From NCBI GenBank assembly GCA_963790205.1, contig CAWBNQ010000010.1, positions 1-64,000 on the forward strand: DNA of 64,000 bases, written 5' to 3'. This DNA comes from Nitrospirota bacterium. Its GTDB lineage: Bacteria; Nitrospirota; UBA9217. A program made the translations under genes and the position numbers. Position 1 is the first letter of the stretch. Each line of letters starts with the position of its first letter. Of this stretch, positions 2 through 58,919 are shown piece after piece. The notes under the pieces are model-generated. The model was not told the DNA's origin and did not search any database. It worked only from the letters and a program-made list of their open reading frames with translations.

Positions 2-382
2 CTACCCCGCCGCTACGTTCTTCTGTACCAGCGCATCGAGATAATGCAAGAGAGCCTTCTGGTCCCTTTTCGGAAGGCTCTCTATCTTTTTTAACCGCCG
101 CCACAAGGCCGCGTGCTGCGGATCGCGCTGCTGCTTGACGAGCTTCACGCCGAGCAGTTCGTCAGTCGAGACCTTGAGCGCTTTCGCCAGCGGCTCGATC
201 AGGTGCGCCGGGGGATAGCTGGTCTCTCCCTCGTAGTAGGCGATCACCCTGCAGGAGACGTTGACCTTTTCGCCCAGCTCGGTCTGGGTCAGCCCCAGTT
301 CCTTCCGCAAGCTCGCCAGCCTCTTCCCGAAATCCTTCGCAGTGACAGTTGTCCTTTTCATGAACAGCATAATATCACGCAT
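2..382 (-). CDS. XRE-family HTH transcriptional regulator
   Basis: FGKRLASLRKELGLTQTELGEKVNVSCRVIAYYE is a Cro/C1-type HTH; divergent from the primase. Confidence 0.9.
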   Translation of the reverse strand: MRDIMLFMKRTTVTAKDFGKRLASLRKELGLTQTELGEKVNVSCRVIAYYEGETSYPPAHLIEPLAKALKVSTDELLGVKLVKQQRDPQHAALWRRLKKIESLPKRDQKALLHYLDALVQKNVAAG

Positions 383-393
383 TTAAAAACTCC

Positions 394-422
394 TTGACAT
401 GGATATACGAAAACCGTATATT
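394..422 (+). promoter_or_regulatory. Sigma70-like promoter of the primase operon overlapped by a palindromic operator
   Basis: TTGACA (394-399), 17-nt spacer, TATATT (417-422); palindrome ATATACG-N5-CGTATAT at 403-421. Confidence 0.6.
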
Positions 423-482
423 CTTGACACCGCATTATACCATTTAGAATCCGCTTGACAAGTTTTTTCAAAGGGGGCCGAA

Positions 483-3152
483 ATGAGGGTTTCAAAGGAG
501 GAGATCGAGAAGATCAAGCAAACCTATGACCTCCGGGCGGTCATCGAGTCCTACGGCGTCACGCTCAAGAAGAAGGGCAGCAACTACGTCGGCCTCTGTC
601 CCTTCCATAAGGAGAAAGCCCCGTCCTTTACCGTTAACCCCAAGACCAACCTTTACCACTGCTTCGGCTGCGATGCCGGCGGCGACGTGATCGGCTTTGT
701 CAGCAAGAAAGAAGGTATCGGCTTCCGGGAGGCAATCGAGAAGCTCCAGGGCCGGAAGCCAGAGTCCAGGACGCAGAAGCCGGAGAAGAAGGCAAAGGAA
801 AGCCCCGCTCCTGAATCATCCATCAACCGCACCCATCTCCTTAACCGCGTCGTCTCGTTCTACCATAAAACCTTCTGTGAAGATCCTCGCGCGCGTGAGT
901 ACATGCGCTCGCGCGGGATCACTGACAACGCTCTCTTCTCAGACTTCACGATCGGCTACAGCAACGGAACCTTGTTGAACACCATCCCGGACGAAGGCGA
1001 TATCCGCGAGGCCCTCAAGGAGATCGGCATCCTGAACGAGCGCGGCCATGAGATGTTTTACGGCTCTGCGGTCTTCCCGATCTTCGACGAGAATAAAGAC
1101 GCTGTCGGTCTCTACGGCCGCAGGATCACAGACGGAGAAACCGCGCACCTGTACTTACCCGGTCCCCGCCGCGGCGTCTTCAACTTCCCGGCGGCGAAGC
1201 GGTCAAAGTCCATCATCCTCACCGAATCGATCATCGATGCTCTCACCCTCTACAACGCGGGCTTCAAGGACGTGCTCCCATGCTACGGCGTGAACGGCTT
1301 TACTCAAGACATGCTCGATCTTCTTACCCGCAGCCAGGTCAAAGAGGTTTACATCTGCTTCGACCGTGACGATGCCGGGAAGGACGGCGCGGAGAAGATC
1401 GCAGGGCAGTTAAAAGAAAAAGGCATCGCTGCTTATATCGTGCAGCTCCCGGCGATTGAAGCCCAGGACAAGGTAGACATCAACTCTTTTATTCTCTTAA
1501 CCGCTGACGCTTCTACGATCTTCGAGCGACTTCTTAAAGAATCCAATCACCGCGCATCGATCCGCTCCGACAAGATCGTGAAGCACGAACAGAAAGCATA
1601 CGAGAAGACCGACACCGGTCTTGTCGTTCAGTACGGCGACCGGCGCTACGACGTGCGCGGGATCATGCGCGAGGGCGTGAAGCTCAAGGCAACGATCAAG
1701 GCGGTCCGGGGAGAGAAGGCAGCGCAGCGGTTCCACCTGGACACGGTCGATCTTTACTCCAATCGAAGCCGTCTCTTCTTCGCCAAAGCCTGCGCCGTGC
1801 TCTTCTCCGAGAAAGAAGAGATCATCACTGAAGACGTGACCAAGCTCATCGATCTGGCCGAGTCCTGGAAGCCGGAGACGAGCGACGCTTCGACAGTCCA
1901 GAAGATGACCAAGGCCGAGGAAGACGAGGCCCTGGAGTTTCTGAAAGACCCGGAACTCTTCTCCCAAATCCTCGTTGACTTCGAGACCGTGGGGATCACC
2001 GGCGAGGACGCAAACAAGCTCATGGGCTATCTCTCGGCCACCAGCCGCAAGCTCGATGAACCTTTATCCATCCTCGTCCAGTCCCGGAGCGCAGCAGGCA
2101 AGAGCACGCTGCAAGACGCCGTGCTCTCGCTCATCCCGGAAGAAGACTACATCAAATACACCCGCCTCACCGGCCAGGCGTTGTTCTACATGCAGGAAGA
2201 CAGCCTTGTCCACAAGCTCCTTGCCATCGAAGAAGAGCACGGGGCAAGAGACGCGTCGTACTCGATCAGGAACATCCAATCATCAAAGTATCTATCCATC
2301 GCTGCCACGGGCAAGGACCCCGCGACCGGCAAGCTCAGGACAGAAGAGTACAAGGTAAAAGGCCCGGTTGCTCTCATGATCACCACAACCGAGGTAGAGC
2401 TTGATTACGAGACCGCTAATCGTTTCGTTACTCTCACCATCGATGAATCAAAAGAGATGACCGAACGCATCCTCCAGAAGCAGCGCGAGCGGCAAACCCT
2501 GGCCGGTCTCTTGAAGAAGGTCGAGACCGAGCGGATCACGAAGCGTCACCACAACGCGCAGCGCCTTCTTAGGCCCCTTCGCGTGATCAACCCCTATGCC
2601 GAGCTTCTCACCTATCCAGCCGAGACGCTGCGCGCCCGGCGCGATAACATGAAGTACCTGGGCCTTATCCTGGCCATCGCCTTCCTGCACCAGTACCAGC
2701 GCGAGATAAAGACGGTCCAGAACAACGGCGACCTCCTTCAATACATCGAGGTGACGCTAAACGACATCGAGAAGGCGAATACGCTCGCCGCCGAGATCCT
2801 CGGCCGCACCCTTGACGAGCTCGCCCCGCCGTCGCGCCTTCTTCTCAAGATGGTCCGCGAGATGGTCGAGGCCCGCTGCAAAGACAGCGAGCCGAAGAAC
2901 TATCACTTCAACCGCCGCGACATACGCGAGTGGACCCGGTGGAGCGACTCGCAGATCAAGCGCCATATCCAGCAGCTCGAAGACCTCGAATACATCTACT
3001 CCGTCGCCGGGAAGAAGGGTAAAGAGTACGTGTACGAGCTTCTCTATCCAGGAGGCGGCGAAGACGGCAAGCCCTTCCTCATGGGCTTAACCAGCATCGA
3101 GGAGCTAAAGAAGAAGCTCGCCGCGCAGAAGAAAGGAGAACGCAATGGATGA
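483..3152 (+). CDS. DNA primase (CHC2 zinc finger + Toprim) fused to a P-loop ATPase/helicase-like domain
   Basis: CPFH..CFGC zinc finger; ESIIDALT and DRDDAG Toprim motifs; SRSAAGKS Walker A; 889 aa. Confidence 0.9.
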   Translation: MRVSKEEIEKIKQTYDLRAVIESYGVTLKKKGSNYVGLCPFHKEKAPSFTVNPKTNLYHCFGCDAGGDVIGFVSKKEGIGFREAIEKLQGRKPESRTQKPEKKAKESPAPESSINRTHLLNRVVSFYHKTFCEDPRAREYMRSRGITDNALFSDFTIGYSNGTLLNTIPDEGDIREALKEIGILNERGHEMFYGSAVFPIFDENKDAVGLYGRRITDGETAHLYLPGPRRGVFNFPAAKRSKSIILTESIIDALTLYNAGFKDVLPCYGVNGFTQDMLDLLTRSQVKEVYICFDRDDAGKDGAEKIAGQLKEKGIAAYIVQLPAIEAQDKVDINSFILLTADASTIFERLLKESNHRASIRSDKIVKHEQKAYEKTDTGLVVQYGDRRYDVRGIMREGVKLKATIKAVRGEKAAQRFHLDTVDLYSNRSRLFFAKACAVLFSEKEEIITEDVTKLIDLAESWKPETSDASTVQKMTKAEEDEALEFLKDPELFSQILVDFETVGITGEDANKLMGYLSATSRKLDEPLSILVQSRSAAGKSTLQDAVLSLIPEEDYIKYTRLTGQALFYMQEDSLVHKLLAIEEEHGARDASYSIRNIQSSKYLSIAATGKDPATGKLRTEEYKVKGPVALMITTTEVELDYETANRFVTLTIDESKEMTERILQKQRERQTLAGLLKKVETERITKRHHNAQRLLRPLRVINPYAELLTYPAETLRARRDNMKYLGLILAIAFLHQYQREIKTVQNNGDLLQYIEVTLNDIEKANTLAAEILGRTLDELAPPSRLLLKMVREMVEARCKDSEPKNYHFNRRDIREWTRWSDSQIKRHIQQLEDLEYIYSVAGKKGKEYVYELLYPGGGEDGKPFLMGLTSIEELKKKLAAQKKGERNG

Positions 3153-3351
3153 CACGAAAATCGCCATCGTGAAGAACTGGCGGAAGTACCATCTTCCGCA
3201 CGTCATGTGCGGCTTCGTTCTCGAAAGCGACTTCCGCTGCTTCACATCCGCGTCGGTCTGCTTCGGCGACGGCAGCGGGATCGAGGTCCAGGCCGGAGAC
3301 AAGGACGACCTCATTATCACGGATATCCCGTTCAGCGCTGTCGAGGAGTGA
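3145..3351 (+). CDS. Small hypothetical protein overlapping the primase stop
   Basis: AGGAG RBS; 68-aa ORF overlapping the primase 3' end. Confidence 0.5.
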   Translation: MDDTKIAIVKNWRKYHLPHVMCGFVLESDFRCFTSASVCFGDGSGIEVQAGDKDDLIITDIPFSAVEE

Positions 3352-3354
3352 GCA

Positions 3355-3416
3355 ACTTGGACGGCAAAAAAGGCAACTTGGACCCTACTTGGACCCCACT
3401 TGTCCGGTACTAGTCC
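3355..3416. repeat. Phased ACTTGGAC-like direct repeats (11-bp period)
   Basis: acttggac at 3355, 3376 and 3387; acttgtcc at 3398; actagtcc at 3409. Confidence 0.75.
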
Positions 3417-3556
3417 GGTCTGGCCGAAGCTCATAAACTCCTTGATAGGAGCGGAGACAATCCACCTTTTTACTCAACTTGGCCGCTTTTGAGGAAAAGC
3501 ACATATACCGGATGCAGGAAAAGCCCCGATCATAAGAATACATAACGAGGCGAATC

Positions 3557-4552
3557 ATGAGCGCGTTTGACGATCATCTCTCCGGCTTCACCGAACACAT
3601 GAAGGTCAAGAACTACTCTCCCGCGAGCATCGCGGTTTACTCTGAACACCTGCCCGGCCTGTTTGCTCATCTCAAAGAGCAGGGGATAACGGACGTGAAG
3701 CGCGTCAGCCGCGATCATCTCCAAGGCTATCAGCTCTCGATCATGGAGCACATCAGCACCAGAACCAACGACAAGTACTCTGTCGGCACGATCTGTACCA
3801 AGACCCGCGCAATGAAGCGCTTCTTCCAGTACCTCGAAGACAGCGGCGTTATCCTGATCAACCCCGCTGAGCACATCAAAGAGCCGAAGGCAGCAAAGCG
3901 CCTGCCTCGGTCGATCCTGAGTGAAGAAGAGGTCAAGAAGATCCTCGCAGCGCCCAAGCTTACCACGATCAACGGCATCCGTGCCCGCGCCATCCTCGAG
4001 GTCCTGTACTCAACCGGCATCCGTCTCGAAGAGCTGATCAACCTCACCATCTTCGACTGCGATCTCCAGGGCGGCTTGATCCGGGTCAAGGGCAAGTTTA
4101 GCAAGGACCGCGTCGTGCCTCTCGGCAAGCACGCCGTCCGCTTCCTGAAAGAGTACATCACGCAAGTGCGGCCGCAGCAGACCAGGAAGAACAAGGCCGT
4201 CAAGAACCTCTTCGTCAGCCGGTTCAGCGATCCGCTCTCAAAGCAAGTGATCGAGCTGATGGTCCGGGACTACGCCAGAAAAGCCGGGATCAAAAAGAAG
4301 GTGACGCCCCACACCTTCCGGCACACCTTCGCAACGGACCTGATCAGAAACGGAGCCGACATCATCGCGGTCCGGGACATGCTCGGCCACTCTTCCGTAA
4401 GCGCAACAAACATCTACATCCACGTTGCCGGCGTGGACGTAAAGAGAACGCACAGCCAGAGCCATCCGAGAGAGCGGGACAAAGAGACAAGGGAAGAGAT
4501 CATCCCGGATATCCGGTCCTTGAAGGAGCGGCCACATCATGAGCGACTTTAA
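3557..4552 (+). CDS. Tyrosine recombinase, XerC/XerD-like
   Basis: N-terminal SAM-like domain; LYSTGIR, HTFRH and LGH...Y catalytic motifs. Confidence 0.93.
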   Translation: MSAFDDHLSGFTEHMKVKNYSPASIAVYSEHLPGLFAHLKEQGITDVKRVSRDHLQGYQLSIMEHISTRTNDKYSVGTICTKTRAMKRFFQYLEDSGVILINPAEHIKEPKAAKRLPRSILSEEEVKKILAAPKLTTINGIRARAILEVLYSTGIRLEELINLTIFDCDLQGGLIRVKGKFSKDRVVPLGKHAVRFLKEYITQVRPQQTRKNKAVKNLFVSRFSDPLSKQVIELMVRDYARKAGIKKKVTPHTFRHTFATDLIRNGADIIAVRDMLGHSSVSATNIYIHVAGVDVKRTHSQSHPRERDKETREEIIPDIRSLKERPHHERL

Positions 4553-5475
4553 CGCCTTCAAGGAAAAGTACCGCCAGCATCTTACGGTGATCCGCTACGC
4601 TGCCGACACCATCAAGCGCTACATCTACTTCCTTAACCGCTTCTTCGCCTGGCTCGAAGCTCAGAGCGTCACCGAGATCGGCGCAGTCACAAAGGACCAT
4701 GTCCAGGATTACCAGACGCACCTTTACGAGACCGTGAACAGCAGGGGAGAGCCGAACAGCGTCTTCCACCAGAACAACACCTTAAAAGCCATCAAGGGCT
4801 TCTTCCGCTTCCTTGCCGAGCAGAACTACCTTGTCAGCGATCCAGCGAGGGACGTATCCTACGCGCGGACACCGAAGAGACTGCCGCGCTCGATCCTGAC
4901 CGGACCGGAAGCAAAGAAGGTCATCCATGCGCCCAACACCAAGACCGCGACCGGATACCGGGACCGGGCCATCATCGAGGTCTTTTACTCAACCGGGATC
5001 AGAAGAAACGAACTGATCAACCTGCAGCTCTCCGACGTGGACTATCACGAGGGCTTTGTCAGGATCAACAGCGGGAAAGGGGAACAAGGACCGCGTCGTC
5101 CCGATCGGCAAGATCGCCTGCAGGTACATCGAGAACTACGTCAAGGCAGTCCGGCCGATGCTCGTCAAGGACCCGACTAGACAACCATCTCTTCCTCACG
5201 ATCAACGGCAACACGATATCGCGCAGAACCGTGTATGGCAGACTCATCAAGACGCTACAGCAGAAAAGCGAAGATCAAGAAGAACATCACGCCGCACACC
5301 TTCCGGCACACGTGCGCCACGCTCATGCTCAGGAACAAAGCGAACATCAGGCACATCCAGGAGCTGCTCGGCCACTCCTCGCTTGGACTCGACCCAGGTC
5401 TATACATCAGTCACGATCACGGACTTGAAGGAAGTACACAGCAAGTGCCATCCGAGGGAGAAGGATCGTGAGTGA
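4539..5475 (+). pseudogene. Second XerC/XerD-like tyrosine recombinase, frameshifted in this sequence
   Basis: Motifs [28 protein letters not shown] and STQVY are spread over three frames (ORFs 4539-5180, 5056-5475, 5235-5471); may be sequencing error. Confidence 0.8.
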
Positions 5476-5560
5476 CAGCGTGAGGCGTGAGTGATGATAG
5501 AGGCGAGGGACAGTGACAGCGCAGTGACAGTGCAGGGACAAAGGATAGCGGAGGCCTCCG

Positions 5561-6110
5561 GGCTTGCGGGATGGATCGCCCCGCAAACCCTGCGGCATGA
5601 TTTTACCCCCGCCCGCCCCGCGAAACAGGGGCAGAGGCAAGCGCCGCGCCAGCCCTCCCCCCGCCGAGCCCTCCCCCTTTGGAAACCCCCTCCCTGGCAC
5701 CCCCCTCCATCATCGGAACTCCCAAAGGGGGAGGGCTCTCTGCGCACATAGTGTAGCGCCTAGGGGGGAGGATGCTGCGCGGGGCCGACCCTCCCCGCGC
5801 CCTTCGGGTCACGGCGCTTGCAAACCTCTGCCCCTGCTTCGCTCCCGTCTGCCCCCAAGGGGGCGCCCAGGATCGAAAGCCGGGGACAAAGAACGAACCC
5901 TGTGCGGAAGTGTGCTTCACGCCTCCGCTTCGCTCCGGCGTCAAGCCCGCTATCTATGCTCGGTCACGATCCTTGCAAAGAAGCGCAAGGCTCGCGCCCT
6001 CGCACCCGCCCGCCCGCCGCGCGTGAGAGAGCGCCTGCGCTTCGCTCCTGCGCACTCTCCCGCGCTCCCATCCGCCCTGGAAGGGCTCCCCGGAATGCAC
6101 GGCGGTTAAA
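5561..6110. other. GC-rich, highly structured non-coding region
   Basis: Perfect 17-bp inverted repeat 5666-5682/5722-5738, a second stem near 5561-5590, recurrent GCTTCGCTCC; no credible ORF. Confidence 0.55.
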
Positions 6111-6180
6111 AGAAAAGGGGAGAGATGAAGCGAAGAGATGAAGCTTGACTCGAAGGCGGTACGCGATTACAATAGCCCAA

Positions 6181-6318
6181 CTATACTTATGACTTGAAGA
6201 AAAAACGTCGAAAAACGAGCGGAGTCGTAATAGTATGTTGTGCGCGGAAGACCGCATAGATACAGCGTTTTTCTCTTATGAGCCGGGGTCGCCAGGCGCG
6301 TTGATCCACAACGATCAT
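6181..6318 (+). repeat. Leader/junction repeat copy 1 (candidate att site) fused to an Rhs core
   Basis: Shares GTCGAAAAACGAG, AGTATGT, AGACCGCA, GTCGC and GTTGATCCACAACGATCAT with 7497-7633 at matching spacing. Confidence 0.7.
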
Positions 6319-6942
6319 TTAGCCACTCCTCAGAAGATGACAGACGGAACCGGCGCGGTTGTTTGGGCTGCGGACTACAAACCGTTCGGCGAAGTCAACA
6401 TCACCACCAATACCATCACTAACAATCTCCGTTTCCCTGGTCAGTATTACGATGCTGAGTCGGGGCTGAACTACAACTATTATCGTGACTACAACGCTCA
6501 ACTTGATCGCTATAACGAAGCTGATCCGGTGGGGTTGCGGGGTGGCATCAACCTTTATCTTTACGCGGGTGCGAATAGTATACGTTTCACTGATCCACGT
6601 GGATTACTTCTTGGTGGATCCGGTGCAACGATTGGAAATCCACCAGGAACAGCGATTGGCCCTCAACCGCCAGCACCGGGAACCTGTACAAGTGGTTGTC
6701 ACCCTGGGATGCCTTCTCCTAGTCCGATACCACAGTGCAAGAAATGCACACTAAATACCGGTGAATTTAATACTTGTTTGCTAAGAGAATACGCTTTAGC
6801 CCAAGTAGAAGCTGATGCTTGCGCTTTTTTCTGTGCAGCTGCTATTGCTACGCCAAATCCGTATACAATTACGGCTTGCGCCATCTGTGTTGGTACTGCT
6901 GTTGCCCTGACAGTTAAATGTTATAATGAATCATGCCATTAA
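6301..6942 (+). CDS. Orphan RHS repeat-associated core + Cys-rich C-terminal toxin tip 1
   Basis: HNDHLATP, YKPFG, LRFPGQYYDAESGLNYNYYRDY and DPRG motifs; the ORF is open from ATG 6235. Confidence 0.88.
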   Translation: MIHNDHLATPQKMTDGTGAVVWAADYKPFGEVNITTNTITNNLRFPGQYYDAESGLNYNYYRDYNAQLDRYNEADPVGLRGGINLYLYAGANSIRFTDPRGLLLGGSGATIGNPPGTAIGPQPPAPGTCTSGCHPGMPSPSPIPQCKKCTLNTGEFNTCLLREYALAQVEADACAFFCAAAIATPNPYTITACAICVGTAVALTVKCYNESCH

Positions 6943-6956
6943 AATTGGAGAGTAAA

Positions 6957-7376
6957 ATGGGAATTTCTAAAAGAATTTTGGTAACTAAAATATCTGTGCT
7001 GTGTCTCATAGGAATTCTTACCTATAGAGTAATATCTGTGTTTTGGATGTCGGGCCAAAATTTTGCTGCGAATAACATGAGTTCATCTATTGGACTGAAA
7101 TGGCTATTCCTTCCTTTTACTAGTATAATATTTTTTGCGATGCTATGGAATGTACTCAAGCTTGAGTACATATTTTTCGCTTCGGGTCTTGCTTTAATTT
7201 TTGTTGTGTTATACGAATCGTTTTCCCTGCCTGTGCAGGCTCTCAAAGTGCTGCAGACTATTGGGCTAATTTTATATGTAATCGCTGTTGCGCGGATCAG
7301 TGTTTTTTTTATAAGCAAACAATCTAATGAATTTCTTGAAGACTCTATGAAAAAATGGATGGGCAAGAGTAAGTAA
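6957..7376 (+). CDS. Multi-pass membrane protein, putative immunity protein 1
   Basis: Low-GC hydrophobic ORF directly after tip 1; GGAG RBS. Confidence 0.65.
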   Translation: MGISKRILVTKISVLCLIGILTYRVISVFWMSGQNFAANNMSSSIGLKWLFLPFTSIIFFAMLWNVLKLEYIFFASGLALIFVVLYESFSLPVQALKVLQTIGLILYVIAVARISVFFISKQSNEFLEDSMKKWMGKSK

Positions 7377-7405
7377 AGAGTTGGCTTAAATTATCCAAGA
7401 TATTT

Positions 7406-7472
7406 TTACCCCGTCTTCTTCGCCTTCTCACTTCCCAGGAACGGATCGAGGATCTGCACGATCTGCTTACGC
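7406..7472 (-). pseudogene. C-terminal remnant of an XRE-type regulator
   Basis: Encodes RKQIVQILDPFLGSEKAKKTG*, resembling the XRE tail (QKALLHYLDALVQKNVAAG*); same orientation and position after an immunity gene. Confidence 0.5.
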
Positions 7473-7496
7473 TTCGGGGCGGAAGTTAGGAACCAT

Positions 7497-7633
7497 CTAC
7501 ACCTATGATCTTTGAAAAAAGTGTCGAAAAACGAGAGGTGGCACAAGAGTATGTAGCTCTCGTAGACCGCACGGTTTAAGACTATTTTACTTCTTAGTCG
7601 AAGTCGCTTTACGAGTTGATCCACAACGATCAT
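7497..7633 (+). repeat. Leader/junction repeat copy 2
   Basis: Diverged copy of 6181-6318; internal stem ACGAGAG (7531-7537)/CTCTCGT (7557-7563). Confidence 0.7.
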
Positions 7634-8272
7634 CTCGCCACCCCGCAGAAGATGACGGATGCTTCCGGCACGGTTGTATGGGCTGCGGACTACAAACCGT
7701 TTGGAGAGGCGACGATCACCGTCAGCACGATCACGAACAACCTCCGGTTCCCCGGACAGTACTACGATGCAGAGACCGGGCTGCACTACAATTACTTCAG
7801 AGACCATAATCCTATTATCGGGAAATACATAGAACCTGATCGCATCAATTTAACATCTTTACATCTTCCCCTGCCGCTTTTTAAAACAAAGATTAATTAT
7901 GCCGGCAAAAAAGACAAGATTCTGAAAAAAATACTAATCAACTATTCTCTTTATCATCCGCAAACGCAGAATCCGTATCCCTACGTAGAAAACAATCCGG
8001 TTAACCGAACTGATCCGAATGGTGACTATTCTATTGTGGCAGTGGTAGTTGTTGGAGCCGGTATAGCGGCTACTGTATGGTACCAGATTTATAGAGCATC
8101 ACATCCTCCGAATATGCCCAACCCTTCACCACAGGAGCCGGTGATACAGCGACCTCCAGGACAAGAGCCTGCGATATGTCATGTTGTTCATCATCCTAGA
8201 CCGGAAGCCCCAGAATTACCGGACCTCGATGACCCAGAACCAGCTGAAGGGCCAGAACTGCCGATGAGGTAG
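7616..8272 (+). CDS. Orphan RHS core + hydrophobic/Pro-rich tip 2
   Basis: Same core motifs as tip 1; NNPVNRTDPNG cleavage motif followed by a TM-like and Pro-rich tail. Confidence 0.88.
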   Translation: MIHNDHLATPQKMTDASGTVVWAADYKPFGEATITVSTITNNLRFPGQYYDAETGLHYNYFRDHNPIIGKYIEPDRINLTSLHLPLPLFKTKINYAGKKDKILKKILINYSLYHPQTQNPYPYVENNPVNRTDPNGDYSIVAVVVVGAGIAATVWYQIYRASHPPNMPNPSPQEPVIQRPPGQEPAICHVVHHPRPEAPELPDLDDPEPAEGPELPMR

Positions 8273-8297
8273 ATGTAATCAATAGGAGATGAAATAA

Positions 8298-8702
8298 ATG
8301 CTAAAAGAGAAATTAAATATTAATTTTATTGTAGTATGGCTTTACTTGTTGGTTGGAATAGAATCAGCCTTTTCAGGTATCTATTACGACATTCAGTATT
8401 TTTTGCAATCAAGAAATAAATTGTACTTTATAGATTTGTCTATCGACTGTCTTGATGCTATTGGATTGTTTGTAACGCTTGTAATCTCACTAAAGAAAAC
8501 CTCTGAAATGATAAAGATATTGTTATTTCGTATTTTTATAGGGATCGGCTTGACGAGTGTATCAACATTAATGATATTGCGATTCTATTTTTATGTGCCA
8601 ATACCGAGTTTTCCATCGGAGTTAATAATTGCTACTCTACTGATAGACGGCTACATAATTAAAATGATTCTTGATAAAAAAATAGAGCCGTTGCTTACTT
8701 GA
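8298..8702 (+). CDS. Membrane protein, putative immunity protein 2
   Basis: Low GC, about four hydrophobic segments, AGGAG RBS, follows tip 2. Confidence 0.65.
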   Translation: MLKEKLNINFIVVWLYLLVGIESAFSGIYYDIQYFLQSRNKLYFIDLSIDCLDAIGLFVTLVISLKKTSEMIKILLFRIFIGIGLTSVSTLMILRFYFYVPIPSFPSELIIATLLIDGYIIKMILDKKIEPLLT

Positions 8703-8735
8703 GGATAACTTGTTGACATTCTTTGGCGGCAACCC

Positions 8736-9269
8736 TACTATTATCACAACGATCATCTCGGCACTCCCCACAAGATGACGGACTCGACCGGAGCCGTTGT
8801 TTGGTCTGCGTACTACAAACCCTTCGGTGCAGCGACGATCACCGTCAGCACGATCACAAACAATCTCCGGTTCCCGGGGCAGTATTACGATGCAGAAACG
8901 GGGCTACATCAGAACTGGAATCGTGATTACAATTCCTCAAATGGTCGATACCTTGAAGCGGATCCTTTTTTGCTTTCACTTTTTTATCAAGGCAAAATAT
9001 TATTCGTCCCACCATATATCACAAAAAATCCAAGCCTCATACCCGTTTATCTTTATGGGGTAAATAATCCGACGAAATATTTCAATTCAAATGGTTATAA
9101 AGCAGCACAATGTAATCCATGTCCTTATGGAAATCAGCCATGGGTAGCATGCATCTTCTTGTGTGATACAATGTGTAACGTAGCTTTTGATATAGAGGCA
9201 CCTCCCATAACAATCATTTGTATGATCACATGCCATGCAGGTTGCGAGAGTCAAAAGTGCGAGAAATAA
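8736..9269 (+). CDS. Orphan RHS core + Cys-rich tip 3 (first ATG 8775)
   Basis: YYYHNDHLGTP is in frame upstream of the ATG; LRFPGQYYDAETG; degenerate cleavage motif (NNPTKYFNSNG). Confidence 0.85.
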   Translation, partial: YYYHNDHLGTPHKMTDSTGAVVWSAYYKPFGAATITVSTITNNLRFPGQYYDAETGLHQNWNRDYNSSNGRYLEADPFLLSLFYQGKILFVPPYITKNPSLIPVYLYGVNNPTKYFNSNGYKAAQCNPCPYGNQPWVACIFLCDTMCNVAFDIEAPPITIICMITCHAGCESQKCEK

Positions 9270-9364
9270 TAACCAATAGTTGACGGCCTGACTGCACTGC
9301 TTTTTAGCATTACAAGTTTAAATTATTTGAGTCGATTATATTTTATGCTAAATTGGAGGCGGAA

Positions 9365-9817
9365 ATGATATCCGATTACATTGCATACCTAATCCCGCTG
9401 TGGATTATTGCACTCTATATAATTAATGATCAAATCCGAAAAGGATCACTAAAGAAAACACGTGCGCATTATAGTGAAAGATTCTTTACAAATCACCCAC
9501 CTGATATAACTTTTAAAGCAATAATGGCATTCGCAACCCAAAATCGTTTTCGAATAGATGACTTTGACGAAAAACGTCTTGCAGTAATATTGAACGAAAG
9601 AATGACTTGGAATAGCTATGGTTCCCTATACCCAATTTATGTTTTTGAGCAGGCTGGCGGATCCATGGTAGAAGTTGGCATTACAAAGAAGGCAGGGAAA
9701 TTTTCTCTATCCAGTCCATTCGTCCAGAGAGTCTTGACCTTGCGTCTGGAGCGTATGATCAATGCTCTGAAAGGCGCGGTGTTTGCATATGAGGGAACAG
9801 CCGGTAGGTCAGATTAA
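9365..9817 (+). CDS. Membrane-anchored protein, putative immunity protein 3
   Basis: N-terminal TM segment; GGAGG RBS; follows tip 3. Confidence 0.6.
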   Translation: MISDYIAYLIPLWIIALYIINDQIRKGSLKKTRAHYSERFFTNHPPDITFKAIMAFATQNRFRIDDFDEKRLAVILNERMTWNSYGSLYPIYVFEQAGGSMVEVGITKKAGKFSLSSPFVQRVLTLRLERMINALKGAVFAYEGTAGRSD

Positions 9818-9835
9818 GCGAAGCGCAACCCGATA

Positions 9836-10115
9836 TCACCCCGCCGCGTTCTTCTGTACGAGCACATCGAGATAATGCAAGAGAGCCTTCTGGTCCCTTT
9901 TCGGAAGACGCTCTATCTTTTTTAAGCGCCGCCACAAGGCCGCGTGCTGCGGATCGCGCTGCTGCTTCATGGCCTTGATCCCCAGGAGTTCATCCGTCGA
10001 GACCTTGAGCGCCTTTGCCAGCGGCTCGATCAGGTGCGCCGGGGGATATTGCGTCTCTCCCTCGTAGTAGGCGATCACCCGGTACGAAACACCGGCCGCT
10101 TTTCCGCCTAGCTGA
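9836..10115 (-). pseudogene. 5'-truncated paralog of the XRE regulator at 2-382
   Basis: Nearly identical C-terminal 80 aa; homology is lost near 10115, with an in-frame stop further upstream. Confidence 0.85.
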
Positions 10116-10270
10116 CCGGGCGGTTGTCGTGACTTTTGTCAGGATCTTGACATGCAATGATTCAACCGGAATTCGTTAGAGTTTCTACTCATCGAAACTC
10201 GCATGATTGTAGGTGGAGTTGCGATATCTGCCCGTGCTATATAATGCAGATTTACTGGTTGAACTATGTA

Positions 10271-37050: not shown

Positions 37051-38352
37051 GGCTCTCCCGGGTTTAGCATGGATACATGTCTAGCCCGCCGCAGTGAAAG
37101 TAAATTGCTGTCTTGAAGTGTTCCTTGTTCCGAAATCCGTAGGCCATCTTTTTGATTGTCTGTATCTTGCTGTTGAGCCCTTCGCTGACCGCATTCGTTA
37201 TGCGGTGCTGAAGATAAGTCAGAACGTTAGCAATATGTCTTTTGATCGTTCCTGCTGCGTCAATGATTGGCTTCAGCCTGCTGTGTGTTGCCCAGAAATA
37301 CCACCGCTTCCAGAATTTCCTCGCTGACTCGGCATAGTTGTAATGCCACAACTTCCGAAACGTCTCCTTGATGGCCCACGCGCGTCCTACCTTCAACTCA
37401 AGCTTTTGTAATGCGGCAAATTCCCTGCGGCGTTTCTCCGGAACGTTCTCCTTGCTGTACGGCCACAAGTACTTACTCCCCTTGAGCGTTTCGTCACCTT
37501 CTTTCATCCGCTGCCGATGTTCCTGCTTTCGTACCGTGTCTACCGCTTTCCCGAGGTAGCCCATAATGTGGAACCGGTCGAAAACGATCTTGCTCTCGGC
37601 ACCAGGCACATGGGCACGCGTCGCCTCAAGGTAGGGCTCCCACATGTCCATTGCAACCGCCTCGAGGCCTTCTAATTGCTCCGGCGTCAGACTCTTGTAA
37701 TAGCTCTCCAGACTGCTCTGTTTGCGGTCATCCTCAATGTGCTCTACCGTGCCTCCGTCTATATCGCTTACCAGCGTCAGGTATGTATGACCCTTGGCAA
37801 TGGCTTTCTCATCGACGCCGATCCGGGGAACGACGCGGTCTTGTTTCCGAAGCTTTCCGCGCTCTACGGCGCGTTCCATGAGGTTCCATGCTTCGTCCCA
37901 GCTTATCCGCAAGATCTTCGTGGCCCCGGTTATATCGCACTCCCGAAGAACATCTATGGCCAACCGCTCAAATAAAACCGTGAATCGTGACTTCGGTTCC
38001 GCCCAAGGGACCCGAACCTGCAAAATCCCATGCTCTGCACACGTTATGCGGGGAATACGCGCATGCAAGTACGTCTTGAACTGGCAACTGTCAAGGTGAC
38101 GCCATAACCGCTCTTCGGCATGATCATAGACCGTCGACTCCTTCGAGCATTCCGGACAAGACCATACTGCGTCCTTCTCATGTTCCACCCATACATCTAC
38201 CCGCTGCTGCTTTACATCCAGTTCAACTTGACTGACACTCCAGGGTGACTTCAATCCCAGCAATTGCTGATAAAGTCCGGTATCCTGCATGATCGCCTCC
38301 TCAGGCGACCATCCTATCACATATTTCTACCCACGGGAAAGCCGGAAGAATC
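37051..38352 (-). mobile_element. ISL3-family insertion sequence, copy 1 (1302 bp)
   Basis: Imperfect terminal IRs GGCTCTCCCGGGTTT / GATTCTTCCGGCTTT; near-identical to copy 2. Confidence 0.95.
37064..38290 (-). CDS. ISL3-family transposase
   Basis: CPEC zinc finger, IGVDE, AMDMW, FDRFH, EGLNSKIQ..K..AYGFRN. Confidence 0.95.
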   Translation of the reverse strand: MQDTGLYQQLLGLKSPWSVSQVELDVKQQRVDVWVEHEKDAVWSCPECSKESTVYDHAEERLWRHLDSCQFKTYLHARIPRITCAEHGILQVRVPWAEPKSRFTVLFERLAIDVLRECDITGATKILRISWDEAWNLMERAVERGKLRKQDRVVPRIGVDEKAIAKGHTYLTLVSDIDGGTVEHIEDDRKQSSLESYYKSLTPEQLEGLEAVAMDMWEPYLEATRAHVPGAESKIVFDRFHIMGYLGKAVDTVRKQEHRQRMKEGDETLKGSKYLWPYSKENVPEKRRREFAALQKLELKVGRAWAIKETFRKLWHYNYAESARKFWKRWYFWATHSRLKPIIDAAGTIKRHIANVLTYLQHRITNAVSEGLNSKIQTIKKMAYGFRNKEHFKTAIYFHCGGLDMYPC

Positions 38353-49672: not shown

Positions 49673-50974
49673 GGCTCTCCCGGGTTTAGCATGGATACAT
49701 GTCTAGCCCGCCGCAGTGAAAGTAAATTGCTGTCTTGAAGTGTTCCTTGTTCCGAAATCCGTAGGCCATCTTTTTGATTGTCTGTATCTTGCTGTTGAGC
49801 CCTTCGCTGACCGCATTCGTTATGCGGTGCTGAAGATAAGTCAGAACGTTAGCAATATGTCTTTTGATCGTTCCTGCTGCGTCAATGATTGGCTTCAACC
49901 TGCTGTGTGTTGCCCAGAAATACCACCGCTTCCAGAATTTCCTCGCTGACTCGGCATAGTTGTAATGCCACAACTTCCGAAACGTCTCCTTGATGGCCCA
50001 CGCGCGTCCTACCTTCAACTCAAGCTTTTGTAATGCGGCAAATTCCCTGCGGCGTTTCTCCGGAACGTTCTCCTTGCTGTACAGCCACAAGTACTTACTC
50101 CCCTTGAGCGTTTCGTCACCTTCTTTCATCCGCTGCCGATGTTCCTGCTTTCGTACCGTGTCTACCGCTTTCCCGAGGTAGCCCATAATGTGGAACCGGT
50201 CGAAAACGATCTTGCTCTCGGCACCAGGCACATGGGCACGCGTCGCCTCAAGGTAGGGCTCCCACATGTCCATTGCAACCGCCTCGAGGCCTTCTAATTG
50301 CTCCGGCGTCAGACTCTTGTAATAGCTCTCCAGACTGCTCTGTTTGCGGTCATCCTCGATGTGCTCTACCGTGCCTCCGTCTATATCGCTTACCAGCGTC
50401 AGGTATGTATGACCCTTGGCAATGGCTTTCTCATCGACGCCGATCCGGGGAACGACGCGGTCTTGTTTCCGAAGCTTTCCGCGCTCTACGGCGCGTTCCA
50501 TGAGGTTCCATGCTTCGTCCCAGCTTATCCGCAAGATCTTCGTGGCCCCGGTTATATCGCACTCCCGAAGAACATCTATGGCCAACCGCTCAAATAAAAC
50601 CGTGAATCGTGACTTCGGTTCCGCCCAAGGGACCCGAACCTGCAAAATCCCATGCTCTGCACACGTTATGCGGGGAATACGCGCATGCAAGTACGTCTTG
50701 AACTGGCAACTGTCAAGGTGACGCCATAACCGCTCTTCGGCATGATCATAGACCGTCGACTCCTTCGAGCATTCCGGACAAGACCATACTGCGTCCTTCT
50801 CATGTTCCACCCATACATCTACCCGCTGCTGCTTTACATCCAGTTCAACTTGACTGACACTCCAGGGTGACTTCAATCCCAGCAATTGCTGATAAAGTCC
50901 GGTATCCTGCATGATCGCCTCCTCAGGCGACCATCCTATCACATATTTCTACCCACGGGAAAGCCGGAAGAATC
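49673..50974 (-). mobile_element. ISL3-family insertion sequence, copy 2, with 8-bp TSD AATTGTTA
   Basis: AATTGTTA at 49665-49672 and 50975-50982; same IRs as copy 1. Confidence 0.97.
49686..50912 (-). CDS. ISL3-family transposase
   Basis: As copy 1, with one amino-acid difference seen (YLWLY vs YLWPY). Confidence 0.95.
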   Translation of the reverse strand: MQDTGLYQQLLGLKSPWSVSQVELDVKQQRVDVWVEHEKDAVWSCPECSKESTVYDHAEERLWRHLDSCQFKTYLHARIPRITCAEHGILQVRVPWAEPKSRFTVLFERLAIDVLRECDITGATKILRISWDEAWNLMERAVERGKLRKQDRVVPRIGVDEKAIAKGHTYLTLVSDIDGGTVEHIEDDRKQSSLESYYKSLTPEQLEGLEAVAMDMWEPYLEATRAHVPGAESKIVFDRFHIMGYLGKAVDTVRKQEHRQRMKEGDETLKGSKYLWLYSKENVPEKRRREFAALQKLELKVGRAWAIKETFRKLWHYNYAESARKFWKRWYFWATHSRLKPIIDAAGTIKRHIANVLTYLQHRITNAVSEGLNSKIQTIKKMAYGFRNKEHFKTAIYFHCGGLDMYPC

Positions 50975-52421: not shown

Positions 52422-55400
52422 TTAATCTCCCATTTCATTAACGGTCAATGAATTGACCACGGGTAATGTTTCATTTTTTGAATTAGAATAAGTTAAATTC
52501 GAGTTCGCCTGCCCGCCAGTTGCATTTTGGGTTTTCTTAATTGGCGAACTTGTTAAACCACTTAGCAAACCACTTCCGACTGACCAGAGCAAGCGCCATT
52601 CGTTGGGGTTAATCGATGAAGGCCCTGGAAAAAATATATTCCAAAGTTCCTTGCCATATGGTGCAACATATGGTTCAGCATATCCCACACTGCCGCCAAA
52701 AATGGCGCTATATAAGCCGCTTGAGAGCATTGTATCAACATTTCCATTCCCGCCCGCATAGCCAGTAGCAACCCCGGATCCGAAACCTCTGATCGCGCCT
52801 TCAGCTATATTTGCTACGTCCGATCCTTCACCTATGGCGCCGTAAGCCTCTCCACCTAAATAGCCGGTCACACCACCTACGACACCTCCGACAACCACGC
52901 CATGAAGGAAATTCCCCCCAGATCGATAAGCGCTAATGCCCCCGGCTATTTCTCCAGCTAATGCACTTACGTACGCGCTTTCTACCGCATCCGCCGCCAC
53001 ACCGCCTGCCACCCCTCCGCACCCATCACAGTACCACGTTGCCACAGCAGTACCAATAATAATTTCATCTCCAAGAATATAGCTCCCAGTCTTGGACTTC
53101 GTCAACTCATATGAACCATATATTGGCTCCACACCCTGAATCAATAATTCCCCGACCCAGGTTGAAAACAGGTTTGAAAAGAAATCTCCCCAGTGCATAT
53201 GCCCTGTGGGGTCGGTGTAAATCATCGGGTTATTGAGCACGTAACTGTACCTGTTGAGCGATTGCGGATTCGACGGGTCATTCACAAGTGAATCCGCGCT
53301 GATGAACCTGCCGAGCGCCGGGTTATAGAATCTTGCATTGTAGTTATACAGCCCGGTCTCCGCGTCAAACTCCTGCGCCGTGTACTTATGGTTTACGGGA
53401 ATACCCCCCGCGTCAAAGTACGTTGCTCCAAACGGCAGGTAGTGCACCTGGTCCACTGAGTTGTCCGGATACCCGGATACGAGGAGCTCGAAGTTTTGGA
53501 TGGTTAGCGAGCCCGCGTTGTCGCTCACCATGCCCACAAGCTCCGACCTTCCAGCTTGGCTCGTATAGGTGCAGTCGTAACCGCCGCTGAGCGTTACGGA
53601 GACGCCGTTGCTCAAATTGAGGTTTTCGATGAAGTTCCCGGCCATGGTCTGGATAACGTCGCCGTCCGACGCAGCGTCATAGGCCGCCTGGATCGTGGAG
53701 AAATACTGCGGCGTGGCCCCGGCGATTCGGACAGGCTGGTTGGAACATTGACCGTCCTGAACCGCCCCGACCTGACTGACGTCCTGGGTGCTTCCGAGAT
53801 GGTCGTCGTGATAGTATAAAACAGCGGTGCCGGTCTTCATGGCCACCCGCGTGTCTCCGGCAAAAATGTACTTGGTGCAGTTCTCCGCCATGCACTCGTA
53901 GAACTTTCCAAAGTAGATGTCGTCGCCAAGAGATGTGGTCTTCTTGACCCGCGTGTCCGCCCCGTCGTACACGAAGCTTGTGGTCGCGCTGTTTACGGTC
54001 ACGGACTGGGGCATGTTGTCGTAATCGTAGGAGATTGTCCTAATCCCATCCGAGATCATGTTGCCGTTTGCATCATAGGTATAGGCCCCTCCGTCCGAGG
54101 TGGATTTTACGGCATGGGGCTTTGGGCCGGTGTAGTCGTACGTTACACCCTCTTTCATCGTAATATTGCCTGCAGGAGAATAGTTATACCAGAGAGCGCC
54201 GTAGCTCTGGCTCTGCGCTTCCTGGATGCGGTTGTGCTCGTCATACCAGAACGACTGGGTATTCGCGCCGTTAACGTTGTCCACGATGTCTCTGATGCTT
54301 CCGCCGGGATTATAGTCATACGCGAGACTCATGATGGTCTGGTTCGCGTTTCCCGTGACGATTGATTGGAGGCGTTTGTTCGTGGAGTAATACTGGTAAG
54401 CGGTAGTGACGCCGTTGCCGTAGGTGATGGTCCCCGGCTGGCCGACGGCATTATAGTTATCATAGATCGCGTATGGCGAGCCCGCAGAGTTAATGGCTGC
54501 AGCAAGAGCGCCGGCATTATAAGCATAGCTCACCGTTTCGGTATCGGGATACGTAAGACTTGCGATTCTTCCAAGAGCATCGTATGACATCTTAAAATCG
54601 TATCTTGTCGAGCCTATGATTTTCGACGTTCCGGTCGACCTTCCGAGCTGGTCATAGTAATAGTTAGTCGTTCCCGATGCGTCGGACATTGTCGACAACC
54701 TGCCTATGGGATACGTGGGCATGGTGGAATCAGGCGCAACGTCGTACGTATAGACCACGTCGCTGCCCGTGGGATAATGTTTTCTGACAGGCCTGTTCAG
54801 CGGGTCGTAGTTGAATGTTATGGTCTGGACTTTGGCGTCCGTCTGGGAGACAAGGTTGCCGTTGGCGTCGTAGAAATACGTCCAGTCGTTTCCGTTGGGA
54901 CCGCTCATGTCTGGATCGTGCATGAAGACTTTGCGGCCGAGGTGGTCGTAGCGCATCTCGGCCTGGTTGCCTTCCGCATCCGTCACGAAGCGCAGGCTTC
55001 CGAGCACGTCGTACTGATATGTGGTCGTTGCGTAGGAAGTAAGGGCATCGGTCGTGCAGGAGGAAAACGGCCCGGTATATTCTTCGACCTTGACGAGTTT
55101 GCCCTGCTCGTTTTTCGTTATGCGCTTGCGGTGCTGATCAGGATCGATGGACACTGTAACACCGTTGTAGTAGCATATGCTTGCGCTGCTGCCGTCAGGC
55201 GCGGTCATAGTCATCGCACGGCCCATCGCATCATACGTATAGCTAACCCATTGCGAAGTTTCTACCCCGTCAAAATAGGGCAGTGAAGTCTGAGACACCG
55301 TGCCGGTCGAATTATATTTCGTTTGGAATGCTATTATGTTCCCGTCCGGGCCGGCGCTTTTTTCTGCAATGGTCCTGCCGAGCCCGTCGAAATAGGACCA

Positions 55401-58400: not shown

Positions 58401-58782
58401 TGACGCCGAATCTCGCGCCCCGCTCTATAGCACCCACTTCCAAATCCCAGCCTACTCCCACCCAACCATTGCCATTACTACTGTTGTAGCTAAGCGCAAG
58501 GCTCGGTTCCATGCCATGCCGTCCGCTTGGAACTTCAATAGGAATTCCGTAGATCATAGTGCCGGTAAACAGACCAGGCGTCACTGCGCCAATAGGTGTA
58601 ACAGAGCCGCCTCCTGCGGTAAAACCTCCGACATTTCCATCGCTCCCGCTGCCTCCGGAGGGGGGTATGAGGACTCCAGCAGCAACGTTGCTGGTGATTG
58701 CGTGGCAATTCATAGCGGTGAAGTGGATAATAAAAACACTAAGAGCGAAAATCAAGATGATTTTTTTCTTCGCCTTGGCCAT
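52422..58782 (-). CDS. SpvB/TcdB-like + FG-GAP + YD/RHS repeat protein with a variable C-terminus; frameshift near 55900
   Basis: Signal peptide; IEVPSGR..P.L.L.Y.S..GNG..G.GW; ERDFRGF; YD repeats; ARFYNP..GRFIS.D; NNP..YTDPTG. Confidence 0.88.
56670..57700 (-). repeat. Seven tandem 156-bp (52-aa) FG-GAP/VCBS repeats
   Basis: CFxGDLNGDGKTDFWCETAASSGLWNVA x7; the nucleotide motif recurs every 156 bp. Confidence 0.92.
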
Positions 58783-58919
58783 GATACTCTCCTCCTCATG
58801 CAAAGTTATTCGGTTTTAAAGCTTGAGTTAAATACCGTGCTCGCTATGACGACCTACGGGGTATCCTTTTCCCGCATGAGAACCGACGGGATCACGAGAT
58901 AACAAAGATAAGTATTTTA

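Follow-up and report, generated by a model that had tools for sequence, protein, structure and literature searches.

A recombinase-bearing integrative element in a Nitrospirota genome and its probable part in the displacement of Rhs toxin tips

Introduction

How Rhs and CdiA toxins acquire a new tip with the old tips kept has been an open question since 2009, homologous recombination being the default answer. The question is raised by a stretch of 64,000 nucleotides from a Nitrospirota bacterium (GenBank assembly GCA_963790205.1, contig CAWBNQ010000010.1, positions 1 to 64,000), here called the window, whose positions 2 to 10,115 hold an XRE-type repressor gene, a primase-helicase gene and two tyrosine recombinase genes, followed by three orphan units of Rhs core and tip. 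The original prediction, made from the letters of the window, was that a circular form of this element recombines inside a full-length rhs gene, equips it with a new tip and shifts the previous one downstream. Recombinase-directed tip displacement by an integrative element is judged here to be probable, at roughly 0.8, and is supported by a defined attachment-like (att-like) site, by co-variation of that site with the recombinases, by a breakpoint between two rhs genes of the same genome, by a pair of E. coli alleles and by circular and tandem forms. The material at hand consists of the products of such reactions, from which we infer all the enzyme steps.

Results

The att-like site at the start of the Rhs cores

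The standard core site of tyrosine recombinases consists of inverted arms around a 6-bp overlap. In the window, H-N-D-H codons open all three Rhs cores, at 6307, 7622 and 8745, and throughout the window's clade a leader of nearly fixed length, about 130 bp, precedes the orphan cores, which all start at one codon. The site at this start is built as TGATC, CACAAC (His-Asn) and GATCA, where the right arm is rhs coding sequence and the left arm is non-coding sequence of the element that mirrors the right. Two arms and a 6-bp spacer are the features of a dif-type core, with arm sequences that are the element's own. Across the whole 4.3-Mb genome the pattern was found two times, each time in the window, vs 0 for its reversed control, and it is not put down to chance. 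Core 3 has no leader and retains three native Tyr codons left of the spacer. A TTGAC hexamer stands 159-171 bp ahead of the 6-bp spacer in 10/14 junctions of the window's class.

The comparison covered 61 loci from genomes and the best 80 of 139 from metagenomes, and all locus counts given here include duplicates and kin and hence overstate independence. The same design was found in other clades at other codons, namely PG|QY, IS|EDP and xx|NNP, and further sites were recognised by inspection (DD|KG, DT|NNN, DD|LY, YP|NG, DA|NG and LP|FG). Sites were defined by the right-hand rhs motif and split by native-looking residues on the left. Complementarity of the arms about the axis stayed at chance level in positions 1-3 (0.27, 0.38 and 0.12) and reached 0.52-0.90 in positions 4-11. 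At least 5/8 arm matches were reached by 53/60 raw junction rows vs 0/125 native sites. After removal of 7 rows that are native by protein context, addition of 3 rows missed by the pattern and merging of identical ones, 48 curated junctions remained; 48/48 reach 5/8 with a mean of 6.4, compared with 1.1-2.3 when the axis is slid, and every left arm best matches its own class.

The predicted crossover at the HNDH codons is supported for the window's clade, with HNDH being one of at least 10 distinct sites, by which a single universal HNDH junction is ruled out. The prediction had also asked whether one fixed codon is used in all homologs and had counted variable junctions against itself. The codon varies across the family and is fixed within recombinase clades, and since it is fixed there the model is strengthened, even with that variability formally on the other side. 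In three loci (L011, L092 and L093) two rhs motifs, EDP and NNP, are joined to a near-identical leader and the right arms are alike, which may show retargeting under way. Eight orphans in locus L059 share one common junction, and cassette arrays are also found in G034 and L085.

The recombinases and their co-variation with the site

The recombinases are 331 aa and 309 aa long, and their catalytic motifs are present in at least 51/56 A and at least 53/58 B sequences. Two recombinases were found in 60/70 loci, one in 8 and none in 2. Both proteins score below the NCBIfam equivalog cut-offs for XerC and XerD, recombinase A with 251 vs 335 and 263 vs 330, and recombinase B, taken from the intact relative L067, with 252 vs 335 and 264 vs 330. 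Their best model is PRK01287, likewise under its cut-off, and the integron-integrase model TIGR02249 gave 126 and 137 bits vs a cut-off of 265.

Mapped on the trees, the 10 junction classes require 9 changes on that of recombinase B, which is the minimum, 10 on that of A and 11 on that of the primase, vs 18-20 in shuffles; kin loci share junction labels, and these label-change counts alone do not establish co-evolution. The copies in the window and on contig C2 of the same genome point to different target sites, and their primases are 92% identical and their recombinases 64-66%. Locus L085, which uses the window's site, has a primase 84% and recombinases 87-91% identical to those of the window. 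By these comparisons the recombinase pair and the leader behave as an exchangeable module, and we infer that specificity for the rhs arm is set by recombinase B.

Where the crossover lies

The narrowest placement of the crossover comes from E. coli, in a relative with a single recombinase. In E. coli D6 a full rhs gene is followed by two elements with an orphan after each, and three orphans share the starting codon and have the mirror arm. The last tip of D6 is present near-whole in 50 genomes, and of the 4 compared, three have D6-like layouts and one, A34, lacks any element, bears this tip directly on its rhs gene and is the empty allele of D6. A34 and D6 are 99.6% identical up to the site and 99.87% identical from the last junction onward. 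A 15-bp direct repeat flanks the D6 insert of 16,712 bp, and over 90 nt the cores share 70% identity. As judged from the aligned alleles, this pair confines the crossover to 15 bp, which is less than RecA-dependent exchange normally requires.

In the genome of the window, a sister locus on contig C2 holds an rhs gene of 1,328 aa, a small gene and a complete module, and another on contig C14 a frameshifted rhs gene, a small gene and an XRE gene, then insertion sequences. The leader of the C2 element resembles a leader that is joined to rhs on contig C6 at about aa 729, and a chimeric point was therefore predicted there in the C2 rhs gene. The C2 and C14 genes are 96.3% identical before the predicted site and 72.6% after it, and the fitted change point lies at nt 2207 (range 2192-2210) vs a spacer at 2188-2193. 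The full-length C2 gene (7589-11575) starts with a signal-peptide-like segment, which suggests export without a type VI system.

In two Desulfospira records an identical unit of 8,344 bp begins at the first base of the spacer, and the two rhs genes that hold it share 69-84% identity across the 360 bp left of the unit; the 29 bp of shared core leave room for short-homology exchange. Seven pairs of related leaders in the NNP class, which are not independent, gave mismatches of 0.10 (leader), 0.02 (left arm), 0.36 (spacer), 0.02 (right arm) and 0.35 (core). The spacer diverges like the core and therefore looks host-derived. NNP-class spacers are of 21 kinds in 24, with both arms conserved.

Circular and tandem forms and the surroundings of related loci

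The 9.1-kb contig of locus L006 closes on itself within the primase gene and has one junction and no rhs body, and L132, with a terminal repeat of 1,780 bp, is likewise of circular type and without rhs body. Identical tandem units beginning at the junction were found in L018 and L046. A record of 11,289 bp from Lonsdalea populi (L151, NZ_CP072857.1), deposited as a circular plasmid, has a single-recombinase module and two tip cassettes; its site is the same as that of E. coli and an rhs body is absent. In contigs of read runs from relatives a circle joint was sought and none was usable, the best run sharing 0.14 of words and no RNA run being among those listed.

An rhs gene had been expected upstream of the element. 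The window is the start of contig C10 in a genome of 4.34 Mb and 14 contigs, its base 1 being the first base of the contig, and since it begins at a contig end the sequence to the left of position 1 is unreadable. The expectation is supported by the sister loci and by 47/52 informative relatives, counted among loci with 2.5 kb or more before the primase, 51 others being too short. In these 47 an Rhs core lies upstream of the primase at a distance of no more than 6 kb, in 24 as a long gene, in 17 as an orphan and in 6 at a contig edge. No overlap with the start of C10 was found among the other contig ends of the genome. Toward its right end (228000-236501) contig C2 carries a large gene of secreted type and three small Cys-rich genes in tandem, and it breaks off in the opening codons of a third rhs gene, which is a candidate for the upstream rhs gene absent from the window. 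Rhs cassettes in the homologs, which had also been foreseen, were present as an Rhs core or match after recombinase B in 51/62 loci with enough sequence, 31 being too short.

Relatives with a single recombinase occur 37 times in plasmid records, and a DNA match was found in 60/5,426 E. coli genomes. In Enterobacter, Paraburkholderia and E. coli some of them (L154, L155 and L158) stand behind genes of cdiA type, and in L155 two orphans begin at an identical codon without a clear mirror arm. A relative on a Leptospira plasmid (L156) stands behind a gene of 2,076 aa annotated as M23, which suggests a further target class. In L054 (7770-9056) and L055 (7624-8949) the recombinases are followed by an open reading frame (ORF) of unknown family, alike at its start in both and not recognised as Rhs, which is possibly another target gene.

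Layout of the element in the window

The order of XRE gene, primase, two recombinases, spacer, three Rhs units and XRE remnants was found in full, every part standing where the original prediction had placed it. The features are as follows, with position, strand and description.

2..382, reverse: XRE (HTH_3) repressor, RstR-like (Pfam; NF041951 at 71.7 bits, below its cut-off of 80)
394..461, no strand: divergent sigma-70-like promoters, 11/12 matches per strand
403-421: 7-bp inverted repeat, by sequence reading a likely XRE operator
483..3152, forward: Zn-ribbon/Toprim DnaG primase with MCM-like AAA+ helicase and C-terminal winged helix (PF27228, fold)
3145..3351, forward: 68-aa ORF between primase and recombinase A, present in some close relatives only
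3557..4552, forward: tyrosine recombinase A, intact, catalytic motifs present (family profiles)
4539..5475, forward: tyrosine recombinase B, 3' half frameshifted in the assembly (family profiles, comparison with relatives)
5476..6140, no strand: GC-rich structured spacer with conserved hairpin (arms 5666-5682 and 5722-5738)
6145..6173, forward: promoter-like site pointing toward the cassettes
6178..6306, forward: leader 1, about 130 bp, motif copies at 6178, 6224 (inverted) and 6273
6302..6317, no strand: att-like core 1, TGATC, spacer CACAAC (6307-6312), GATCA
6307..6942, forward: orphan Rhs core 1 and Cys-rich tip 1
6933..7376, forward: likely immunity gene 1, four hydrophobic segments, GC 0.40 (role proposed from position and GC)
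7406..7490, reverse: 3' remnant of an XRE gene whose subtype is a different one, also found ahead of three G034 orphans
7493..7632, forward: leader 2 with att-like core 2 (7617-7632, spacer 7622-7627)
7622..8272, forward: orphan Rhs core 2 and Pro-rich tip 2
8298..8702, forward: likely immunity gene 2, three hydrophobic segments (putative role)
8736..9269, forward: orphan Rhs core 3 and Cys-rich tip 3, leaderless, DPxG motif degenerate
9353..9817, forward: likely immunity gene 3, two paralogs on contig C1 at about 80% identity (putative role)
9836..10105, reverse: XRE remnant without its first 36 codons, 88% identity to the element's XRE

The three units have the features of Rhs polymorphic toxin cassettes, that is an Rhs-associated core, a variable tip and a small downstream gene. 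All three cores exceed the TIGR03696 cut-off, and tips and downstream genes are low in GC; no families for them were matched in Pfam, NCBIfam or PHROG, and the 68-aa ORF had no family match in the same three collections. The repeats in leader 1 are likely an accessory binding arm. Both predicted XRE remnants are present, the first deriving from an XRE subtype unlike the element's own. A second site-specific reaction joining XRE and leader is ruled out, as the deletion ends vary.

The primase-helicase is a DnaG-type primase of 889 aa, of which the C-terminal half matches PF27228. A structural model of this half (predicted local distance difference test, pLDDT, 84) matches MCM helicase chains in a fold search with a best E of 1.9e-11, and a sequence search of the PDB with the helicase part returned no helicase. 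The model of the full-length protein was set aside with a pLDDT of 48. The family is large, with 5,150/8,000 scored candidates, and a match was found in 4/64 genomes of the host's class. The spacer proved to be structured as predicted, being GC-rich and folding better than 20/20 shuffles (z -5.2). Its hairpin motif was found at 16 places, at 14 of them with a stem 9-17 bp long and a loop of 37-39 nt, and it is kept across several phyla with differing outer stems, making the hairpin spacer a candidate replication origin.

No capsid or conjugation genes were seen in the element. The suggestion that it might be a satellite agrees with this lack of transfer genes, and no other support for it was found. 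A viral or prophage identity was rejected: 15 phage records match the primase domain only, none of them being a full-length relative, and no relative was found in IMG/VR among 236 pattern matches.

Discussion

Proposed mechanism

Relief of the repressor would allow the element to excise by a crossover of the site in rhs with the one that stands behind the leader, and the resulting circle would carry core, tip, immunity gene and machinery. The primase-helicase would amplify this circle, with replication from the hairpin spacer, and the element's own recombinases would insert it at the fixed 6-bp, two-codon native site in rhs. The incoming tip would continue the reading frame of the rhs body, and the displaced core would end up, together with its tip and immunity gene, behind the leader and its promoter, from which the displaced immunity genes could be expressed. 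Repeated rounds together with imprecise deletion of the machinery would result in the array of the window, and leader-bearing orphans with the machinery deleted might be reusable as cassettes.

Evidence weighed and alternative explanations

A number of observations weigh against this mechanism, the inflated independence of the locus counts among them. The rhs gene upstream of the window's copy is not in the assembly. No upstream core was found in 5/52 loci and the downstream search gave no match in 11/62, among which are two cores recognised by eye, two tip-like ORFs and one contig edge. Recombinase B is frameshifted in the window copy by extra bases near 5076, 5179, 5222, 5241 and 5252, absent in relatives; frameshifts are also seen in the sister loci of the genome, and an assembly error is a plausible cause, real decay being the alternative. 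In native sites the left arm does not mirror the right one, by which binding to the target is left unexplained, and in the MH|AR clade the junction is fixed with no obvious mirror. An unsupervised scan for the best repeat near the start of the hidden Markov model match gave a weak signal, 33/88 at 7/9 for spacer 6, with other even spacers similar, and was superseded by the fixed-axis test. The circular-type records could be collapsed tandem arrays. A step in divergence at the spacer was seen in NNP only and not in HN|DH or PG|QY, and the strongest evidence on the crossover, that of E. coli, stems from a single-recombinase relative. When upstream gene and orphan were compared in 19 pairs, identity was 0.89 in the spacer and 0.86 in the next 30 bp; some upstream and orphan spacers differ (3 of 6, 4 of 6 and 1 of 6), and several loci have 26-30/30 identical bases right of the junction, compatible with homologous recombination. 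Homologous exchange probably contributes too, because spacer identity is about that of the flank and the sequence right of the junction is near-identical in many pairs, and spacer matching may not be strict.

These identities are also what an improbable alternative builds on, by which a small replicon with an Rhs-core homology arm is integrated by RecA as in the circle model of Jackson 2009, the junction being inherited and the recombinases merely resolving multimers at a palindromic site. Several loci are highly identical right of the junction, L021 with 29 identical bp, inverted arms around a 6-bp spacer would suit a dimer-resolution site too, and homologous exchange is the published view. 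Against it stand NNP-class cores of only 14 codons and an E. coli crossover inside 15 bp of cores that are 70% identical; the spacers of related leaders diverge as much as the cores, and the C2/C14 change point falls on the predicted site. Far less probable is that the mirror arms are one-off scars of foldback or template switching and the module a passenger in toxin loci that does not direct tip exchange. Mobile DNA is drawn to toxin loci, the deletions between XRE remnant and leader end variably, and the loci without an upstream core would also fit; scars of this kind sit badly with identical 6-bp spacing in four quantified classes plus several others, with a non-coding arm that changes together with the rhs arm and the recombinase clade, and with the one junction common to the eight L059 orphans. 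We give least credence of all to an integron-like platform, where resident recombinases shuffle leader-bearing cassettes, the primase-helicase resolves intermediates and the whole unit seldom moves. The single-junction arrays of leader, core, tip and immunity gene in L059, G034 and L085 and the promoter ahead of the leader suit such a platform, and against it stand whole units that form tandems, make up records of circular type or are present in identical copy within two rhs genes, as well as the scores far under the cut-off of the integron-integrase model. Integron-like shuffling of cassettes may be a secondary mode beside recombinase-directed tip displacement, which is the reading preferred here.

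The site as defined here, the candidate enzymes, the circular carrier and a pair of E. coli alleles, one naturally empty and one filled, open the question of tip acquisition to direct tests. If the preferred reading is true, a tyrosine recombinase family is apparently retargeting to new coding motifs and tolerating varied spacers, and a bacterial DnaG-MCM replicon is added. By a narrow margin over even odds we also favour a wider proposal, that integrative elements which replicate themselves form a superfamily specialised in giving polymorphic toxins new tips. Its recombinase modules would read a conserved rhs or cdiA coding motif as att site, evolve the matching mirror arm and swap between primase backbones to retarget, and arrays of orphan tips and immunity genes would stem mainly from such elements, not from RecA, where these are present, from Nitrospirota and Desulfobacterota to E. 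coli.

Relation to known systems

Phage-inducible chromosomal islands (PICIs) and similar satellites share an integrase, a divergent repressor, a primase-helicase and a likely origin with the element, and they excise, replicate and integrate as is proposed for it. The module of integrase, divergent repressor and primase-helicase is found here as in PICI-like satellites. Unlike PICIs, the element has two recombinases and a target inside a toxin coding sequence of which the product is altered, and no genes for packaging, helper interference or helper exploitation were seen within it. In integrons a new cassette enters at the front, older ones are displaced and a promoter lies beside the site. 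Front entry and displacement, as proposed here, and a promoter near the site are shared with them; the recombinases here differ in scoring below the IntI cut-off, the machinery would move with the cassette and insertion would give an in-frame fusion. By analogy, the element would replicate as an integrative satellite does and displace tips in the manner of an integron. Integrative mobile elements exploiting Xer (IMEX) lack a recombinase of their own and use host XerCD at chromosomal dif, unlike the present element with its own recombinases and sites inside rhs.

Adjacent or overlapping tyrosine recombinase genes are described in the available part of Van Houdt et al. 2012 (PMC3414803) for Tn554-type, RIT and BIM elements, with an extension of more than 400 aa in Tn554. 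The overlapping adjacent genes with catalytic motifs are alike, as far as that part goes, and the recombinases here, of 310-330 aa, do not have the 400-aa N-terminal extension of Tn554. The third recombinase of RIT trios is absent, and the primase-helicase and the rhs target set the element apart from all three.

The accessible text of Jackson et al. 2009 (PMC2935791) proposes homologous recombination via a circle carrying core and tip, with no integrase known with Rhs. The single circle crossover and the downstream displacement of the old tip are alike in that model; unlike its circle as described there, the present one has a clade-fixed att-like junction and carries recombinases and a primase-helicase. 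Excerpts of Hagan 2023 (PMC10539506) and Poole 2011 (PMC3150448) refer to recombination between conserved sequences, and one of Kirchberger 2017 (PMC5361080) notes the integron parallel with no evidence for an integrase. Recombinases beside orphan or polyimmunity arrays are suggested as contributors in passages of PMC5727410, Ruhe 2016 (PMC4927057) and Zhang 2012 (PMC3482391), where the adjacency of recombinase and array is the same and element, site, crossover and mechanism are undefined. In its available portion Kawano 2007 (PMC1891008) reports a gene for DnaG primase and MCM-like helicase and a helix-turn-helix gene of Cro/cI type, adjoining RHS and haemagglutinin genes. These neighbourhoods correspond to the single-recombinase relatives; that portion gives the context of SymE only, with no recombinase, site or mechanism, and the window has two recombinases and no SymE. 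A 2026 preprint, as excerpted, credits Martinkus et al. 2026 (Curr Biol 36:176) with Xer-dependent recombination systems beside poly-immunity arrays, which may overlap with the present mechanism. The available parts of PMC13183296, PMC13366799, PMC4758244 and PMC2530875 held nothing further relevant.

The mechanism had been predicted to be the novel part, with similar gene neighbourhoods possibly known. Some neighbourhoods are indeed already in print, and no account of the site, the element or the mechanism was found in the main texts of the open literature, subscription papers and supplements being outside this coverage. That the mechanism is already in print appears rather doubtful. We rate the element as new in function, all parts and some gene neighbourhoods being already known.

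Other observations in the genome

The named close relatives are metagenome-assembled genomes of Nitrospirota. A second orphan array, on contig C6 (47829-52363), has no recombinases and is interrupted by insertion sequences. A stretch of 107 bp (window 10109-10215) is 99% identical to C11 131675-131781, downstream of another rhs-like gene. The window also holds, on the reverse strand at 52422-58803, another Rhs/YD-repeat system with a gene of FG-GAP-like repeats, split into two ORFs, with no element adjoining. Copies of a multicopy insertion sequence lie at 37051-37650 and 49673-50942, and another copy is found at a contig end.

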